Shown: one piece after another, positions 21,515 to 61,916 of the stretch
How the letters are laid out: each line of letters opens with the position of its first letter
How positions within the stretch are numbered: position 1 is the stretch's first letter
IMG/VR virus record: IMGVR_UViG_3300032007_000069
Coordinates: 10,328 to 74,327 of that record
Length of the DNA: 64,000 bases
Source of the DNA: a virus
Taxonomy: Duplodnaviria > Caudoviricetes
Direction: 5' to 3' (one strand)
Program-made: the position numbers and the translations under genes
The notes under the pieces: generated by a model
Seen by the model: only the letters and a program-made list of their open reading frames with translations
Database searches by the model: none
Told to the model about the DNA's origin: nothing

Positions 21515-21641
21515 AAAGTTAAATCTTTGTGTATCAGCGATTTATAGAGAAAATAATTTGAAAAACGTTTTGTCAAATGAAAAAAAATGGCTATCTTTGC
21601 ATTGATATAAGAAACAAAACCATCTAAATGAAAGAGCAATG
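21515..21641 (+). promoter_or_regulatory. Class I promoter/leader module 1
   Basis: AAAGTTAAA 21515, TATCTTTG 21592, TATAAGAAACA 21606, AAGAGCAATG 21632. Confidence 0.75.
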
Positions 21642-27489: not shown

Positions 27490-27576
27490 TTTGGATATTC
27501 TAAATTAAATTGCTACCTTTGCACTACATTATTTATATAACCGCACAAAAGTAGGAAAAAAGTGCTTGAGTGCAAA
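27490..27576. promoter_or_regulatory. Face-to-face Bacteroidota promoters
   Basis: Rightward TTTG 27490 plus TACCTTTG 27514 (20-nt spacer); leftward TTTG 27576-27573 plus TACTTTTG 27553-27546 (19-nt spacer). Confidence 0.65.
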
Positions 27577-27592
27577 GGAAATTTGAAGAAAA

Positions 27593-27961: not shown

Positions 27962-27979
27962 CATCTAAAGGCAAGAGCA

Positions 27980-28195
27980 ATGAAGGAAACAAAAGAAATC
28001 TGGTCCCTCTTGAAGCATGAAGCCCAGTGGGACAGAATGACAGCCAAGCAAAAGCTGTTGACAGTCTGGTTCAGTCTGTCATTTGTATTGTTAGGTTTGT
28101 GTGGCGAGAGTCTGTTGTTCGCAGTGATAGCAGTTGCGAACTTCGGGCTCTCTGCCTATTTCACCACCAAGTATGTACCGATGGAGGACGAGTAG
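27980..28195 (+). CDS. Small two-TM membrane protein
   Basis: Starts at AAGAGCAATG; two hydrophobic helices. Confidence 0.65.
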   Translation: MKETKEIWSLLKHEAQWDRMTAKQKLLTVWFSLSFVLLGLCGESLLFAVIAVANFGLSAYFTTKYVPMEDE

Positions 28196-37296: not shown

Positions 37297-37332
37297 AAAA
37301 ATGTTAGCAGTCAGGCGATTTCTGCCGAAAAT

Positions 37333-37365
37333 GTGCGTCTATCTCAAGCATTTTTGCTATCTTTG
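37333..37365 (+). promoter_or_regulatory. Class II promoter 1 (upstream of the replication initiator)
   Basis: GTGCG 37333, TCAAGCATTTTT 37344, TATCTTTG 37358. Confidence 0.7.
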
Positions 37366-37382
37366 CATAGAAATTAAGAGCA

Positions 37383-52110: not shown

Positions 52111-52202
52111 TACTTTTTTGTCATACGAATAAAAGTTTAGATTGATTAAAAACTAAAGTTGATTTCTCTCAGCCTGCCGTCTGAGAAGACATGCAGGCAA
52201 AC

Positions 52203-52275
52203 GCTTCGATAGCTCAGTAGGTAGAGCAACAGCCCTTTAAGCTGTGGGTCCATGGTTCGAGTCCATGTCGTGGCA
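52203..52275 (+). tRNA. tRNA-Lys(UUU) with C33
   Basis: Full cloverleaf; anticodon stem ACAGC/GCTGT, loop CCTTTAA; one T-T mismatch in the acceptor stem; CCA not encoded. Confidence 0.85.
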
Positions 52276-52284
52276 CAGACTGAT

Positions 52285-57067: not shown

Positions 57068-57414
57068 TGGCAAAGAACTTCACCATAGAGCAGATTGTGA
57101 CCATTTACGAGAAGAAGGGGTGTAACATCACTTCTACTTGTAAGGCTCTCGGCATATCACGCAAGACCTTCTATGAGTGGAGGGCCAAGAAGAAGAAGCT
57201 CGCTGAGGCTCTGGAGGAGGCTGACGAGTCCATCCTCGACTACGCAGAGAGCAAGTTGGTCGAGCATATTCAGAACGATGATGTGCAGTCCTTGATTTTC
57301 TTCCTAAAGACCAAGGGCAAGAAGAGAGGATATGTAGAGAAGACTGAGAGCGATGTCAACATTAACGCATTTGAGAAACTGATGCAGGAAACTGAAGACG
57401 ACGACGACGAATGA
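57067..57414 (+). CDS. Terminase small subunit-like HTH protein
   Basis: NITSTCKALGISRKTFYEW and LIFFLKTKGKKRGY; directly before terL. Confidence 0.75.
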   Translation: MAKNFTIEQIVTIYEKKGCNITSTCKALGISRKTFYEWRAKKKKLAEALEEADESILDYAESKLVEHIQNDDVQSLIFFLKTKGKKRGYVEKTESDVNINAFEKLMQETEDDDDE

Positions 57415-58922
57415 GTTCTGGTAACAAGCGACAGAATAAGATGCGAGCGTGGCGCAAGGACTGGTGTTTATTTGCCAAACAAGTGCTCCACGCTCGCCTC
57501 GATGAAGAACAGAAGGCAATCCTGCGTGCTGTTCAGAAAGAGCGTATGGTGGCCGTTGCTTCGGGTACAGCCCGAGGCAAGGACTACATCGCTGCTGTTG
57601 CGTGTCTGTGCTTCATGTACCTCACCCCACGCTGGAAGGACGGCAAGCTGATAAAGAACACGAAGATTGCCATGACAGCCCCTACGGACAGACAGGTGGG
57701 TAATATCATGGTGCCGGAGGTTAGACGTCTCTTCAAGGCCGCTGCCGTGCTCCCTGGGCGACTTGTCGGACACGACATCAGAACGGAGTACGAGGAATGG
57801 TTCTTGACAGGTTTCAAGTCGAGTGCAGACAACACGGAGGCTTGGTCAGGTTTCCATGCCGTCAACACCATGTTCGTGGTGACAGAGGCATCGGGTATCT
57901 CAGAAACCATCTATAATGCCATCGAGGGTAACCTGCAGGGTAACTCACGTCTGCTGATTGTGTTCAACCCGAACATCACTACTGGATATGCGGCAAAGGC
58001 GATGAAGTCGGAGCGTTTCAAGAAGTTCCGTCTCAACTCCCTTCATGCCGAGAATGTGGTCAAGAAGAAAGACATCATTCCGGGCCAGGTTGACTATGAG
58101 TGGGTGCAGGATAAGGTCAAGAGCTGGAGCATCCCCATCCGCAGGGAAGACTACAACGAGGGTGAGGGTGACTTCGAGTGGGAGGGTCAGTACTACAGAC
58201 CAAATGACCTCTTCCGTGTCAAGGTGCTCGGTATGTTCCCGAAGGTGTCGGAAGACGTGCTCATCCCTTACGAATGGGTGGAGCTTGCAAACGAGCGTTG
58301 GAAGGAACTACAGGAAGAAGGTTTCGAGCCGAAGAAGACCTGCCGTGTCGGTGTCGATGTCGCTGGTATGGGACGTGACTCTTCTGTGCTATGTCCGAGG
58401 TATGGTAACTTCGTAGGAGAGTTCGAGGTGCACAACTCGGCTGGTGTGGCCGACCACATGCACGTCTGTGGCATGGTGGTTCCGTACCTCAAGAAGAAGG
58501 GTGTCAAGGCCTTCGTCGATACCATCGGTGAAGGTGCTGGTGTCTATTCCCGTCTGAAGGAGCTTGGCTATGACTATGCCTATTCCTGCAAGTTCTCGGA
58601 GGGCGCGAGAAACCTCTCTGACATCACGGAGGTACGCACATTTGCGAATATGCGAGCCTACCTGTATTGGGCGGTGAGGGACTGGCTTGATCCGAAGAAC
58701 GGCTTCTATCCAGCGTTGCCTCCCAACGACTTGCTCATGCAGGAGTGCACGGACGTCCATTGGAAGTTCCAGAGCGATGGCGACATCATCATAGAACCCA
58801 AGGAAGACATCAAGAAGAGGCTCGGTCGAAGCCCGGACTACCTCGATGCACTGGCCAACACGTTTTACCCACGAGACTACGAAGTTGTGCAAGAAAACGA
58901 AATTTTCGGGGATATGTTGTAG
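57411..58922 (+). CDS. terL: Terminase large subunit
   Basis: ASGTARGKD Walker A, VTEASG, IVFNP, VGVDVAGMGRD and SPDYLDALA nuclease motifs. Confidence 0.92.
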   Translation: MSSGNKRQNKMRAWRKDWCLFAKQVLHARLDEEQKAILRAVQKERMVAVASGTARGKDYIAAVACLCFMYLTPRWKDGKLIKNTKIAMTAPTDRQVGNIMVPEVRRLFKAAAVLPGRLVGHDIRTEYEEWFLTGFKSSADNTEAWSGFHAVNTMFVVTEASGISETIYNAIEGNLQGNSRLLIVFNPNITTGYAAKAMKSERFKKFRLNSLHAENVVKKKDIIPGQVDYEWVQDKVKSWSIPIRREDYNEGEGDFEWEGQYYRPNDLFRVKVLGMFPKVSEDVLIPYEWVELANERWKELQEEGFEPKKTCRVGVDVAGMGRDSSVLCPRYGNFVGEFEVHNSAGVADHMHVCGMVVPYLKKKGVKAFVDTIGEGAGVYSRLKELGYDYAYSCKFSEGARNLSDITEVRTFANMRAYLYWAVRDWLDPKNGFYPALPPNDLLMQECTDVHWKFQSDGDIIIEPKEDIKKRLGRSPDYLDALANTFYPRDYEVVQENEIFGDML

Positions 58923-58950
58923 GTTTCTCGAAAAATTGTCGTACCTTTGC

Positions 58951-59036
58951 AATGTTTCTTATAATGAGACTGCTTTCAATGGCAGTTTTCATTGCTCTTG
59001 CCAGCCTAAGCCGTGAGGCCTCAGACTGGCTTTTTT
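58951..59036 (+). ncRNA. Candidate trans-acting antisense sRNA
   Basis: Own TACCTTTG box (58942), hairpin 58963-58993, intrinsic terminator; carries reverse complements of TATAAGAAACA and AAGAGCAATG; 5' end approximate. Confidence 0.7.
59000..59036 (+). terminator. Intrinsic terminator
   Basis: GCCAG...CTGGC stem with inner GCCT/AGGC pairing, followed by T6. Confidence 0.7.
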
Positions 59037-59052
59037 GTTGCGTAGGTTAGTA

Positions 59053-59185
59053 AAAGTTAAACTTTTGTCGTACAGCGTTTTAGCCTGCATTTTAGCTGAT
59101 TTTTGTTTGGTCATTTGAAAAAAAATGGCTATCTTTGCAATGTTATAAGAAACAAAATTTATTCATCTAAAATTGAAGAGCAATG
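59053..59185 (+). promoter_or_regulatory. Class I promoter/leader module 5
   Basis: AAAGTTAAA 59053, TATCTTTG 59130, TATAAGAAACA 59144, AAGAGCAATG 59176. Confidence 0.75.
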
Positions 59186-59335
59186 AAGGAAATCATCGTC
59201 AACATCATCAAGGAAGGTTGGAAGAAAAACCTGCCAGTCTGTGAGGTTATCCGTAAGATTGAGAATGAGACGGGCTTATACCCACGTTTCGCTCAGCAGG
59301 AGTTTGTCAACAACGTTTTCACCTGCAGGCCATGA
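59183..59335 (+). CDS. Small hypothetical protein (50 aa, absent from the ORF track)
   Basis: MKEIIVNIIKEGWKK...; starts at AAGAGCAATG; ATGA overlap with the next gene. Confidence 0.6.
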   Translation: MKEIIVNIIKEGWKKNLPVCEVIRKIENETGLYPRFAQQEFVNNVFTCRP

Positions 59336-59562
59336 AGAAGACTGACAAGGCTCTGTCCCTTTTACGGCAAGGCAGGTTTGAGGATGCGCTGAGTATCATC
59401 GTGCATTTCAGACTCGGCTTCACGAAGGAAGAGAAGAGGACGCTGGAGATAGCCCATGAGAGCCTTACAGGTCATTCGTCGTTCTACGAGAGCATCGGAG
59501 TAGATACCAGCACTTGCATCAGCAAGGCAAGAGAGATAGTAAGAAACAAGTACAACATCTAA
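59332..59562 (+). CDS. Hypothetical protein
   Basis: 76 aa coupled ORF. Confidence 0.65.
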   Translation: MKKTDKALSLLRQGRFEDALSIIVHFRLGFTKEEKRTLEIAHESLTGHSSFYESIGVDTSTCISKAREIVRNKYNI

Positions 59563-59574
59563 AGACAAAGAGCA

Positions 59575-59976
59575 ATGAAGACAAGTATTGAATTTGAAGG
59601 CAAGACCATCACGATCAGCAGCCGGCACATCGGCATCGACACTCCAGAATGGAGCAAAGGTTACGCAAAGCATCACTACAAGGTTACGGTGTCTGTTCCG
59701 TACAGCACTGGCAAGCGTGAGTACACCACGGACTATTGGTGCAACTCTGCAGAACTGAAGAAGAGAGACCTCTATGAGGTTCTTGAGACCCTGTGCAGCG
59801 ATGCCACCTACGGAGATATGAGTATAGACGACTTCAACTCGGAGCTGTGCTACGAGAAGGTGTCTGAGTGCATCCGTGCCTACAACGGCTGCAAAGAGAC
59901 GTTTGAAGCGTTCAAGAATATGTTCCTTAACCCATACAGCCTGGGAGATTATCTGAGAGAGAAGTATGACATTTAG
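59575..59976 (+). CDS. Hypothetical protein
   Basis: Starts at AAGAGCAATG. Confidence 0.7.
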   Translation: MKTSIEFEGKTITISSRHIGIDTPEWSKGYAKHHYKVTVSVPYSTGKREYTTDYWCNSAELKKRDLYEVLETLCSDATYGDMSIDDFNSELCYEKVSECIRAYNGCKETFEAFKNMFLNPYSLGDYLREKYDI

Positions 59977-60020
59977 AGTATCAAGGCAGACAGCATTGAT
60001 TGCTCTTCAATAGATGAAGC

Positions 60021-60060
60021 GATGGTGCTGGTCTGCGAAGATAGGCACCATCCAATTTTT
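60021..60060 (+). terminator. Terminator-like hairpin preceded by an anti-leader sequence
   Basis: GATGGTGC/GCACCATC 8-bp stem with inner TCT-GCGA-AGA, followed by CAATTTTT. Confidence 0.55.
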
Positions 60061-60067
60061 GAGAACT

Positions 60068-60355
60068 ATGAGCAAGGTTTATGAGAACACAGGCAGTCGC
60101 ATAACCATCTATTCAGACAGCGGCGAGTACAGGATGATAGCCGTCAGAAGGGCTATCTCAGAAGACCACAACGGCATCACTCACTACTATGGCTCCAAGT
60201 GGTACATCGAGACGCACCAACGGAAAGGGTTCGGTTTCATCCCTTGCACGTTCAGAGGTCTTCAGTACGTCGTAAGGAAGAAGAAGGAGATTATCGAAAT
60301 GCTCAGCAAGTCTGTTCAATTCACACAGGCATACGCAGAAATGAAGGCAAAATGA
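60068..60355 (+). CDS. Hypothetical protein
   Basis: Start placed at MSKVYEN, after the hairpin. Confidence 0.55.
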   Translation: MSKVYENTGSRITIYSDSGEYRMIAVRRAISEDHNGITHYYGSKWYIETHQRKGFGFIPCTFRGLQYVVRKKKEIIEMLSKSVQFTQAYAEMKAK

Positions 60356-60415
60356 GGCGGTTTTAGCCAAAAAGTATAAAAAGTGCTTGATGTTGCGCAT
60401 ATTTTTCAGAAAAAA

Positions 60416-60448
60416 GTGCGTGATTTTCAAGCATTTTTTGTATCTTTG
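60416..60448 (+). promoter_or_regulatory. Class II promoter 3 (portal/head operon)
   Basis: GTGCG 60416, TCAAGCATTTTT 60427, TATCTTTG 60441. Confidence 0.7.
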
Positions 60449-60470
60449 CCGCGTTATAACATTTACGCGC

Positions 60471-61916
60471 ATGCCACCTATCAAAGAAATCTTTGGTCTC
60501 GGTAATCCGGGAACCATCATTAACGAGTTGAAGAAGAAGTCGGTCGAGGTGCCCGATTGGGGTGTCTTGATTAACGACTACGAGCCCACCAAGCACAAGA
60601 TCGTGCATGACATGATTGGCCGTAAGGACAGACAACGTTCTGACGGAGTGGTGGAGAAAGCGTCTCGCATCTACATCGGTATGGAGAAGCTGTTGTCGCA
60701 TCGCTACAACGAGTACACGTTCTCCATCCCTGTGAAGCGTGTGTATTCCAACCTCGAAGACAACCAGACGAGGGAGGATATTGCCAAGGCTATCGAGGCT
60801 ATCTACAAGCATGCTCGCATAGATGCCGTGAACCTCAAGCGAGGCCTTGCCTACTACGCTGCCTGTGAGATTTTCACTATCTGGTACACCGTGGAACGTG
60901 AAAACACGCTCTATGGCTTCCCATCCAAGTACAAGCTGAAGTGTAAGACCTACTCGCCTATGGATGGCACGAAGCTGTACCCTCTCATTGACGAAATGGA
61001 CGATATGCTTGCCATGTCGTTTGAGTACGTCAAGAAGGACGGTGAGAAGACCGTGACCTACTTCGAGACCTACACGGCTGACAAGCACTACCTCTGGAAG
61101 CAGGACGGTTCCGGTCCAGACGGATGGACTGAGGTTACCGCTGTCGTGACTGATGAGGGCATGATTCAGAGCGGTGAGAGCATCGAGATAATGAAGATAC
61201 CTGGAGTGTACCTGCATCGTGTGGCTCCCGTCTATCATGGTCTCACTTACCTGCGTGAGGAAATGGAATACTCGCTGTCCCGTCACAGCGACGTGATAGC
61301 CTACAACTCGGCTCCTGTGCTGAAGATTACAGGTAAGATTATCGGTGACGAGAACAAGGGTGACAGCCGTCGTGCATGGCGCTTGGAGAATGGCGGTGAT
61401 GTGGCATACGTTTCTTGGCAGCAGTCCGTGGAGGCTTTGAAGTACCACGTTGACATGCTGGTTAAGCTGTTCTTCATGCAGGCACAGATGCCTGACGTTT
61501 CCTTCGACAACTTGAAGGGTCTTGGCAGTATCGGCTATGATGCAAGGCAGACCCTCTTTACTGATGCTCACTTGAAGATTGGTGATGAGGCTGGCGCATG
61601 GATTGAGTTCCTGGAGCGCGAGTGCAACGTTATCAAGGCCTTCTTGAAGAAGATGAACGTCAAGTGGGAAAAGGAGATTGACAACGTAGATGTCGAGCAT
61701 GTAATCACTCCGTTCGTCCAGAACGACGAGAAGTACGAGATCGAGAAGTGGATGAAGGCTAATGGCGACAAGCCTCTTGTCAGCCACTTGGAGTCCATCC
61801 GCAAGGCAGGTCTTTCAGACGACCCAGATGCCACATTCGAGGAGTACGAGAGAGAGCAGAACGCAAGCATGGAAAGCCGTATGCAAGATGTTCTTGGAGG
61901 CGGTTCAGCAGAATAA
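60471..61916 (+). CDS. Portal protein (SPP1-like)
   Basis: About 480 aa between terL and MuF; start placed at MPPIKE, downstream of the promoter. Confidence 0.8.
   Translation: MPPIKEIFGLGNPGTIINELKKKSVEVPDWGVLINDYEPTKHKIVHDMIGRKDRQRSDGVVEKASRIYIGMEKLLSHRYNEYTFSIPVKRVYSNLEDNQTREDIAKAIEAIYKHARIDAVNLKRGLAYYAACEIFTIWYTVERENTLYGFPSKYKLKCKTYSPMDGTKLYPLIDEMDDMLAMSFEYVKKDGEKTVTYFETYTADKHYLWKQDGSGPDGWTEVTAVVTDEGMIQSGESIEIMKIPGVYLHRVAPVYHGLTYLREEMEYSLSRHSDVIAYNSAPVLKITGKIIGDENKGDSRRAWRLENGGDVAYVSWQQSVEALKYHVDMLVKLFFMQAQMPDVSFDNLKGLGSIGYDARQTLFTDAHLKIGDEAGAWIEFLERECNVIKAFLKKMNVKWEKEIDNVDVEHVITPFVQNDEKYEIEKWMKANGDKPLVSHLESIRKAGLSDDPDATFEEYEREQNASMESRMQDVLGGGSAE

Follow-up and report, generated by a model that had tools for sequence, protein, structure and literature searches.

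A conserved RNA element at the end of a small phage operon and its possible pairing with the operon's own leader

What is the role of a sequence at the tail of a phage operon that mirrors the leader at its head? The question is raised by the 20-mer ATTGCTCTTCAATAGATGAA, found on the + strand at 59999-60018, where two small ORFs leave a gap of 91 nt. It lies in a stretch of 64,000 nt, here called the window, which comprises bases 10328 to 74327 of a 74.3-kb IMG/VR virus record with a CheckV completeness of 99%. A preliminary description of the locus had proposed either a 3'-UTR-derived small RNA (sRNA) or a long-range pairing in cis that folds the mRNA back onto its own first start codon. Promoters of the phage are of the Bacteroidota type (TAnnTTTG), and a Prevotella MAG (L181) contains the element on one of its contigs; the phage, an uncultured one, is of Prevotella type. 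The genome that holds the window (G000) was compared with the relatives G020, G021, G022, G023, which is a fragment, and G030.

The interval from the terminase-like to the portal gene contains, in this order, a small RNA, a promoter at 59130, three small ORFs, the element, one further ORF, and a promoter at 60441 (Table 1). On the + strand, the promoter pattern CTATCTTTGCA occurs at 10 sites genome-wide, 6 of which, including that at 59129, are followed by a ATAAGAAACA box and an (A)AGAGCAATG tag. The tag is present at the first and the third of the three small ORFs. A Pfam search assigned none of these three ORFs to a family, and their PHROGs matches were to families of unknown function only; the product of the first cistron has 50 aa and is not a hydrophobic toxin. 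As had been noticed for the sequence just upstream of the element, no TAnnTTTG box was found between 59130 and 60441, which leaves the element without a promoter of its own. For the same reason, the distal ORF can be expressed only by read-through of the element; in relatives, an additional ORF is present at this position. The U-run may terminate transcription only partly, and with an ORF behind it, the element is intercistronic in read-through transcripts.

Table 1. Coordinates of the features discussed, given as positions in the window
Feature	Position	Strand	Details
CATCTA box and tag before the 71-aa protein gene	27962..27982	+	Gene at 27980-28195, long hydrophobic core; recurring predicted trans target
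Second, diverged family hairpin	52173..52197	+	CCTGC C GTCT GAGA AGAC AT GCAGG; 5 nt before tRNA-Lys (52203-52276)
Large-terminase-like gene	57411-58922		Its relatives served as the anchor
Neighboring promoter-driven small RNA (first anti-leader)	58942..59036	+	Perfect anti-tag CATTGCTCTT
Promoter core CTATCTTTGCA of the small operon	59129..59139	+	Bacteroidota -7 box TATCTTTG at 59130-59137
5' leader of the first cistron	59162..59185	+	TTCATCTA box at 59162-59169, AAA, then TTGAAGAGCAATG with tag and start codon at 59176-59185
Three small operon ORFs	59183-59335, 59332-59562, 59575-59976	+	From the ORF list
Invariant 21-mer ATTGCTCTTCAATAGATGAAG	59999..60019	+	Anti-tag ATTGCTCTT, then mini-hairpin CTTCA (60005-60009)/ATAGA/TGAAG (60015-60019)
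Terminator hairpin	60021..60052	+	Outer stem GATGGTG/CACCATC around tip CTGGTCTGCGAAGATAGG (60028-60045)
U-run behind the hairpin	60056..60060	+	4-6 T in every copy
Distal ORF, 95 aa	60068..60355	+	Between the element and the next promoter
Portal ORF	60387-61916		TTG start; PF05133
Next TAnnTTTG box	60441..60448	+	Just within the 5' end of the listed portal ORF

The tag itself is tied to translation starts. AAGAGCAATG, which ends in the start codon, has 13 perfect sites on the + strand of the window and likewise 13 on the + strand of the whole genome; all 13 window sites end in a start codon, and they occur on one strand only. When up to one mismatch was allowed, 22 sites were observed versus 6.7 expected. 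Six leaders carry a CATCTA box 4 to 6 nt upstream of the tag, namely, those near 21621, 21955, 23979, 27962, and 59557, to which the element had been likened, and the operon's own leader near 59164. Such boxes are present in 6 of 14 leaders in G000, 3 of 13 in G020, and 4 of 7 in the fragment G023; G021 and G022 have few of them and G030 has none, with TAGATGAAG or AAGATGAAG retained. The best duplex between the tag and Prevotella 16S rRNA (-7.3 kcal/mol) lies away from the 3' end of the latter, and no pairing of Shine-Dalgarno type was found. The perfect reverse tag occurs once per genome in G000, G020, G021, and G022. Loci of terminase relatives with 56 to 71% identity were too short to reveal tags.

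The initially described complementarity of the element to the first-cistron leader was confirmed at 59999-60018. ATTGCTCTTCAATAGATGAA is the reverse complement of TTCATCTA and TTGAAGAGCAAT in the leader at 59162-59184, with 8 + 12 pairs and the leader's AAA bulged out, and it mirrors the two-box layout (box, spacer, tag) in colinear antisense order. A match of the 20-mer with no more than three mismatches is expected by chance 0.02 times per window. Using a 21-nt query (the 20-mer with a G added at its 3' end), RNAduplex yielded -24.9 kcal/mol for the element-leader duplex, which is the best site in the 74-kb genome (background mean, -8.2; SD, 2.5), and 8 of the 15 best duplex sites of the element in G000 are tag leaders. 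Within the element, an ATG at 60014 shares the frame of the following ORF in the window but leads to stop codons in loci L031 and L181. A coding extension from this ATG was therefore rejected as not conserved, and the element is considered to be noncoding.

The exact 20-mer was found in five other viral contigs. Extended by one base, it is identical in 18 of 18 further copies (5 viral contigs, 11 metagenome contigs, and one Prevotella MAG), the metagenome search pattern having fixed only TTGCTCTT and the hairpin tip while leaving the middle, the second half of the 21-mer, free. The genes upstream of the element vary among copies (a homologue of the 133-aa ORF, a stand-alone MutS-domain-I gene, or other sequence), and invariant columns of the alignment (A1) are confined to the 21-mer and the hairpin tip. 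The outer stem of the terminator exists in five compensatory versions: GATGGTG/CACCATC, CCTATG/CATAGG, CTGCG/CGCAG, CCTGTA/TACAGG, and CAGTGGTG/CACCAC. Because the 21-mer is identical behind different upstream genes and the adjacent stem is compensatory, the element is judged from these alignments to be real and under selection. The more distant provirus, G030, carries the variant CATTGCTCTTTAATAAGATGAAG, in which the anti-tag is complete (10/10) and behind which a related form of the hairpin stands; its mini-hairpin persists, with a C-G pair turned into U-G by a C-to-U change and with one base added to the loop. All seven tag-bearing genomes with enough sequence contain the element, and the scans found no copy in tag-less genomes. 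The family is narrow, being confined to one clade of gut or rumen phages.

Conservation in relatives had been named as a check on the idea that the element pairs with AAGAGCAAUG leaders, and it supported this idea only in part. The invariant anti-tag, intact even in G030, supports the principle, but the 8 + 12 duplex is peculiar to G000, and neither the CATCTA half of the mirror nor the strong duplex is conserved. The best leader duplexes in relatives reach -17 to -20 kcal/mol, which is no better than the best nonleader sites, and the CATCTA-pairing part of the element is unchanged even where CATCTA is rare in or absent from the leaders. Since anti-tag and tag are both invariant, no covariation between them is possible. 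Further pattern scans for homologues of the element with a different anti-tag, intended as a covariation test, yielded only chance matches in coding regions. The half that mirrors CATCTA is better explained by its place in the mini-hairpin CUUCA/AUAGA/UGAAG, of which it supplies the loop and the 3' arm.

Next to the 21-mer, the terminator-like hairpin of the preliminary description proved to be real. The hairpin at 60021-60052 has a predicted energy of -18.9 kcal/mol (-12.3 to -18.9 kcal/mol among copies) and a covarying stem, and it is followed by TTTTT at 60056-60060. Its tip, CUGGUCUGNGAAGAUAGG, comprises a GNGA tetraloop, G-U and U-G pairs, and one G.A mismatch. Together with the U-run, the hairpin has the makeup of an intrinsic (Rho-independent) terminator; a simple terminator scan missed it, as loop and stem are beyond the limits of that scan. 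The short ATTGA/TCAAT hairpin that had been drawn around TTGCTCT fared less well: it can be drawn in the window but is weak, is absent from predicted folds, and is degraded in several relatives.

Whether the anti-tag is free to pair was evaluated by folding. In 11 variants folded with 40 nt of flanking sequence, the anti-tag was mostly paired locally (mean probability of being unpaired, 0.03 to 0.41), its partner being either an adjacent upstream arm that resembles the tag (in most relatives, AGAGCAA...TTGCTCT) or the mini-hairpin. By comparison, the seed of the neighboring sRNA is entirely single stranded in its 3' half (probability of being unpaired, 1.0). Opening the anti-tag in a short element RNA with 12 to 40 nt of 5' flank costs 2.4 to 9.8 kcal/mol, and the duplex gain is -9.9 kcal/mol for a bare 9-bp tag and -16 to -23.5 kcal/mol for extended leaders. 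This balance makes a free sRNA with multiple targets unlikely, and a selective or intramolecular partner feasible.

Such an intramolecular partner was predicted in all six genomes. In a 918-nt mRNA model, which extends from approximately 59143, a transcription start assumed from the promoter consensus, to the U-run, the minimum-energy fold pairs all 20 bases of 59999-60018 with 59162-59169 and 59173-59184. The summed pair probability between element and leader was 19.3 out of 20 in this model, and that with the first leader was 11.4 in G020, 15.2 in G021, 12.8 in G022, 17.2 in G023, and 11.6 in G030, with local pairing of the element in these five at 1.5 or less, values to be read with the caution that long-range pairs in folds of 0.7- to 1.5-kb RNAs are unreliable and that ribosomes and cotranscriptional folding are ignored. 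The relatives' operons were 736 to 1,547 nt long and differed in gene content. Ensemble folding of the full mRNA thus paired the element with the first leader and its AUG in 6/6 genomes, as the initial proposal of pairing in cis had anticipated. It should be noted that the predicted fold-back is almost built in, because the anti-tag is at the 3' end and an unstructured tag is at the 5' end; folding would give this result irrespective of any use of the pairing by the phage.

Based on these results, the element most likely acts as an RNA via its anti-tag. We tentatively propose that the promoter at 59130 drives an operon mRNA whose tail is the element and that this tail works by base pairing, in a 5'-3' fold-back in cis. 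Of the modes considered, the fold-back is the one best supported by the models, above a trans-acting sRNA and a structural end module, though we would place its likelihood somewhat short of even. Once the tail has been transcribed, the anti-tag AUUGCUCUU and its neighbors would pair with the A/U-rich 5' leader and the AUG of the operon's own first cistron, closing the mRNA into a 5'-3' panhandle. New ribosomes would then be stopped from loading on the first gene, which would amount to a timer or a negative feedback; other possible effects of the panhandle are protection of the 5' end or a double-stranded site for a nuclease. The local hairpins (upstream tag-like arm and CUUCA/UGAAG mini-hairpin) would keep the anti-tag occupied until they give way to the long-range partner, and they would render binding to the plain tags of other mRNAs energetically marginal. 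Leaders with CAUCUA, chiefly the one before the gene for the 71-aa hydrophobic protein at 27980, could still be targets in trans. The hairpin with the conserved tip would terminate part of the transcripts and, by analogy with the terminators of host sRNAs of the FopS/GibS type, probably confers RNA-end stability or serves as a protein handle.

Release of the last ~65 nt by a host endonuclease, or their persistence as a stable decay product, would instead turn the element into a trans-acting 3'-UTR-derived sRNA. Such an RNA would repress several tagged genes by pairing across their start codons and would be a second regulator in addition to the sRNA at 58942-59036. The layout of seed, hairpin, and U-run is that of Bacteroides FopS sRNAs (PMC11697453), with a conserved seed upstream of a terminator that is shared with the operon; in G030, a stable 5' hairpin, a single-stranded linker with CAUUGCUCUU, and the terminator resemble a free-standing sRNA. 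The tag leaders among the best duplex sites in G000, 8 of 15, also fit this reading. Moreover, the box and tag at the 71-aa gene are kept in G000, G020, G021, and G022 (CATCTA, or CATCTT in G022), and this leader recurs among the top matches of the element in the four genomes. Its duplex with the element has -17 to -19 kcal/mol, and that with the neighboring sRNA, of which it is the best target, has -26.7 kcal/mol. Most targets, however, would already be covered by that sRNA with its better seed. The low accessibility of the anti-tag in the isolated element, a net energy near zero for plain tags, and the lack of a promoter or a recognizable processing site at the element argue further against a free RNA with multiple targets, and we consider this explanation a serious rival, though a rather unlikely one.

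Alternatively, the three hairpins may form a structural end module without antisense function, i.e., an intercistronic attenuator and 3'-end protector, which would set how much transcription reaches the distal ORF(s) and would stabilize the upstream message. The anti-tag would then be conserved as a hairpin arm or as a relic of a duplication of the neighboring sRNA. This is consistent with the location of the element within the operon, upstream of ORF 60068-60355 and of the next promoter, at 60441, and with the occurrence of the hairpin family in many phages that lack the anti-tag. The upstream arm to which the anti-tag pairs locally is a different one in each variant, and in G030 a C-to-U change leaves the mini-hairpin intact. 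An arm, however, could covary as the terminator stem does, whereas the 9- to 10-nt anti-tag is constant although its upstream partner differs. In addition, the element is confined to genomes that use the tag, and a colinear mirror of the two-box leader is expected by chance at only 0.02 per window. A purely structural role is a serious rival as well, although it appears improbable to us.

A protein-binding site of nut type, with UGCUCUU as a boxA-like and the GNRA-capped hairpin as a boxB-like sequence, would load host Nus or a phage factor for read-through into the packaging and head genes. Between UGCUCUUCAAUAG and the boxA of E. coli rrn, UGCUCUUUAACAA, 10 of 13 positions agree; boxA, ~12 nt, and a hairpin with a U[GNRA]A loop follow each other with lambda-nut-like spacing; and the hairpin family, like nutL and nutR, has 1 to 2 copies per genome, here with structural genes downstream. 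The Prevotella rrn leader, however, has GUUCUUUGACUAA, with a core match of only 5/8, and other members of the hairpin family lack a boxA-like sequence upstream. A U-run of 4 to 6 U directly follows the hairpin in every copy, as in a terminator itself rather than a site ahead of one, a promoter-like TAnnTTTG box is present at the 5' end of the portal ORF, and the 13 tags are left unexplained. This reading is very doubtful. A DNA-level operator made of inverted repeats, for which the consecutive palindromes in relatives (TAATCGCGATTA, AGAGCAA-N3-TTGCTCT, and TCTTCA-N5-TGAAGA) would speak, or an accidental leader match is the least plausible explanation of all, since the conserved stems use G-U pairs that are A-C on the other strand, the loop-length and C-to-U changes in G030 fit an RNA and not an operator, the tags are one stranded and tied to start codons, the chance expectation is 0.02, and the 21-mer is invariant across divergent flanks.

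The hairpin next to the anti-tag has a much wider distribution than the element and belongs to a family in more than 100 unrelated phage contigs. Its tip, CTGGTCTGNGAAGATAGG, is invariant among the relatives and on its own matches at least 113 viral-contig stretches, with 117 motif matches in loci L055 to L171. In bacterial genomes, the tip was found at 27 places in 596 Gb, which is under the rough random expectation for a 17-base pattern, and about half of these fold as hairpins. The four tip-adjacent pairs are paired in 100% of 30 diverse members, with all pair types present, and their covariation is 0.578 versus 0.123 when shuffled and at most 0.165 with the partners slid. Across family variants, the constant core is G-Y-C-U, GNGA, and A-G-R-U plus one non-Watson-Crick pair. 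Each of five phage genomes checked (70 to 178 kb) has 1 to 2 copies. Among the 117 matches listed, a T-run comes next in 80, and a tRNA gene lies 2 to 11 nt downstream in 22, most often at 4 nt; the tRNA varies (Arg, Glu, Asp, Ser, Ala, or Lys). Similarly, variant hairpins like that at 52173-52197 precede tRNA genes in G021, G022, and G023. No protein gene recurs as a neighbor of the family, the neighbors being amidase/regulator-like, HNH, SSB-like, Erf-like, or unknown. Two GenBank phages carry the hairpin, unannotated. An Rfam search matched no family at an E value of ≤10 over 58800-60400 and nothing at the hairpin in nine other phage loci, ribozyme families included, and the literature searched on the hairpin sequence and on conserved hairpins at phage tRNA genes held no description of it.

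Three other identities were tried for these hairpins and rejected. The tip could be read as an anticodon-loop mimic (CU-GNG-AA), but this requires a stem with a G.A and a U.G, compared with four good pairs in the tetraloop fold, and the identity of the downstream tRNA varies. The theta (HDV-like) ribozymes of gut phages are double pseudoknots with a cleavage site abutting the tRNA 3' end (PMC10879173); the hairpin, in contrast, is a simple stem-loop located 2 to 11 nt upstream of tRNA 5' ends or at terminators. A guide role for the 48 nt before the second hairpin (52125-52172) was dismissed, as no outstanding target was found in the genome.

The same tip leads to the host. A 12-nt core, GUCUGNGAAGAU, is common to the phage hairpin tip and to GGCUGUCUGUGAAGAUGGCC, the terminator of a genuine FopS sRNA (RF04319, 73 bits) of Parabacteroides hominis. 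A model of the phage hairpin matches this terminator and other units of promoter, ~50 nt, hairpin, and U-run in that genome, and it matches 8 of 31 Bacteroidaceae genomes. It is conceivable, though we regard it as improbable, that GUCUGNGAAGAU and the covarying outer stem are a portable 3' handle for small RNAs, common to host FopS-type sRNAs and gut phages, to which phages fuse private guides; the RNA end would be made by termination or by an RNase P cut at the tRNA 4 nt downstream. If this were true, the element would be the clearest example, with its guide and its targets (13 to 15 tagged starts, the operon's own mRNA first) readable from sequence, and together with the neighboring sRNA it would form a two-RNA circuit that explains start-associated sequences. 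To our knowledge, such sequences in phage genomes have lacked an explanation since 2011.

In each phage here, the tag is mirrored by two RNA-like modules of the same genome, which makes the partner of the tag experimentally approachable. The fold-back, if true, would add a phage example that involves a whole regulon to the very few proven cases of 5'-3' pairing in bacterial mRNAs. The hairpin tip ties the element to a large unannotated family of gut phages and to host sRNA terminators, which suggests a common host factor or processing step. The setting would be the Bacteroidales; as far as we know, these bacteria lack Hfq and ProQ, and their RNA biology is little known. Should the handle idea hold, it could provide gene-control parts for Prevotella and Bacteroides.

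Among known systems, pairing between the 5' and 3' UTRs of icaR is, by analogy, the closest proven mechanism, followed by the fold-back of hok. In Staphylococcus aureus icaR, 3'-UTR/5'-UTR pairing controls translation, blocks initiation, and yields a double-stranded nuclease substrate (PMC3868564). Here, too, a 3' element is complementary to a 5' leader, with 8 + 12 bp and the first-cistron leader as predicted partner in 6/6 genomes. However, icaR is a single host gene whose motif mirrors the Shine-Dalgarno sequence, whereas the phage element, predicted from sequence, mirrors a private leader of 13 to 15 genes and ends a multigene operon. In the hok mRNA of plasmid R1 (hok/sok), the 3'-terminal element pairs with the 5' end (tac/fbi fold-back) and blocks translation; local metastable hairpins form first, and a separate antisense RNA acts on the same system. 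The phage operon resembles it in 3'-to-5' end pairing, local hairpins, and a separate antisense RNA nearby, but its 50-aa first product is no hydrophobic toxin, and the neighboring sRNA has many targets.

Two further comparisons are more distant. C4 RNA of phages P1 and P7 and CI RNA of satellite P4 are antisense RNAs cut from the transcript that bears their targets. They share with the element complementary sites in the same transcript that overlap the ribosome-binding region; in contrast to it, they are made by RNase P, of whose processing signal the element shows no trace, and control immunity genes via paired loops. Intrinsic terminators, protective intercistronic hairpins, and T4-type PeSL cassettes are portable hairpins between genes, as is the hairpin with its U-run found here in differing gene contexts, but they have neither a tip conserved across unrelated phages at 1 to 2 copies per genome nor a mirror of a leader.

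We found no published description of a start-tag mirror at an mRNA 3' end, and the Quimbyviridae paper does not mention an sRNA or a start motif. The closest parallel to the tags themselves are the SAS/ESAS of cluster K mycobacteriophages, asymmetric repeats a few bases before the start codons of nonstructural genes (PMC3203893). Approximately half of the SAS have an extended upstream box, single reverse copies are unlinked to gene starts, and it was left open whether the partner is RNA or protein (PMC3203893). The tags of the phage are likewise asymmetric, in one orientation, a few bases from start codons, and at nonstructural genes. SAS differ in containing a Shine-Dalgarno core, whereas the phage tag does not pair with the 3' end of 16S rRNA. 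In addition, no anti-SAS RNA has been described, whereas here two reverse copies lie in RNA-like modules with terminators.

Pairing in the vicinity of start codons is described for Bacteroides FopS sRNAs, one of which originates from a 3' end (PMC11697453). FopS and GibS (Rfam RF04319 and RF04182) resemble the element in having a seed followed by an intrinsic terminator and in pairing near starts. Their covariance models did not match it at an E value of ≤10 over 58800-60400, whereas genuine FopS copies score 73 to 74 bits. The seed of the element is unrelated, the element is promoterless and phage encoded, and RbpB binds FopS at its 5' part rather than at the hairpin. By analogy, then, the element is built like a host sRNA in which the seed has been swapped for a phage anti-tag.

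More than 100 phage contigs with no other evident relationship carry hairpins that share the tip CUGGUCUGNGAAGAUAGG on freely covarying outer stems; Rfam holds no entry for this family. Each phage genome carries one or two copies, placed either ahead of a U-run or about 4 nt ahead of a tRNA, and strong Shine-Dalgarno sites occur in some of these contigs. A diverged copy (tip GUCU-GAGA-AGAC) is present in the window, where it lies within the leader of a three-tRNA array, 5 nt upstream of tRNA-Lys; similar copies precede tRNAs in relatives too. Near the tRNA arrays of large hairpin-bearing phage contigs, we also noticed a tmRNA, RAGATH-34 RNA and a RAGATH-1 hammerhead ribozyme.

The same tip occurs in two Parabacteroides hominis contigs, in units that consist of a TAnnTTTG promoter, about 50 nt of sequence, the hairpin and a U-run. 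Neither unit matched the Bacteroides sRNA families FopS or GibS. They look like unannotated sRNA genes.

The sequence just upstream of the anti-tag element (the anti-tag being the reverse complement of the tag, which ends in the start codons of many phage genes) varies among relatives. In L011, a gene for a stand-alone MutS domain I protein of 111 aa (PF01624, E 6e-26) lies immediately 5' of the element; the same gene occupies the corresponding site in L031, and in both it replaces the 133-aa gene. In most relatives, the perfect palindrome TAATCGCGATTA overlaps the upstream gene's stop codon, immediately 5' of the tag-like arm of the element (L009, and likewise L010, L056 and L227-L237); it is not present in the window.

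A second promoter class is defined by the boxes AAAAGTGCTTGA and GTGCGT...CAAGCATTTTTTG upstream of the -7 box. Genes downstream of these promoters are without the tag.

Locations of the features
Feature	Location	Remark
Hairpin family, examples	L061:3664-3701; L074:11812-11849 (family: viral contigs L055-L171)	tip CUGGUCUGNGAAGAUAGG
Diverged hairpin	window 52173-52197	
tmRNA, RAGATH-34 RNA, RAGATH-1 ribozyme	L093:7615-8152; L081:8876-9263; L093:6283-6387; L074:5649-5733	
P. hominis units	L292:1923-1960; L296:2325-2363	
MutS domain I gene	L011:6897-7232	
Palindrome TAATCGCGATTA	L009:2893-2904	
Second-class promoters	window 60356-60448; 37330-37367; 27560-27580	first: -7 box just within 5' end of portal ORF
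sRNA 5' end, UUUCUUAUA	window 58955-58965	
Leader box UAUAAGAAACA	e.g., window 59146-59156	downstream of most promoters of the first class
71-aa protein gene	window 27980-28195	

At its 5' end, the neighbouring sRNA, a promoter-driven small RNA with a perfect anti-tag, mirrors a third leader box, UAUAAGAAACA, in an order parallel to the tag mirror, not colinear. The leader GGCAAGAGCAATGAAGG of a gene for a 71-aa protein with a long hydrophobic core is the sole leader to pair with this sRNA over 15 to 17 nt (-26.7 kcal/mol), and it is conserved across four genomes. The 71-aa gene resembles an antisense-controlled gene for a small toxin or holin.
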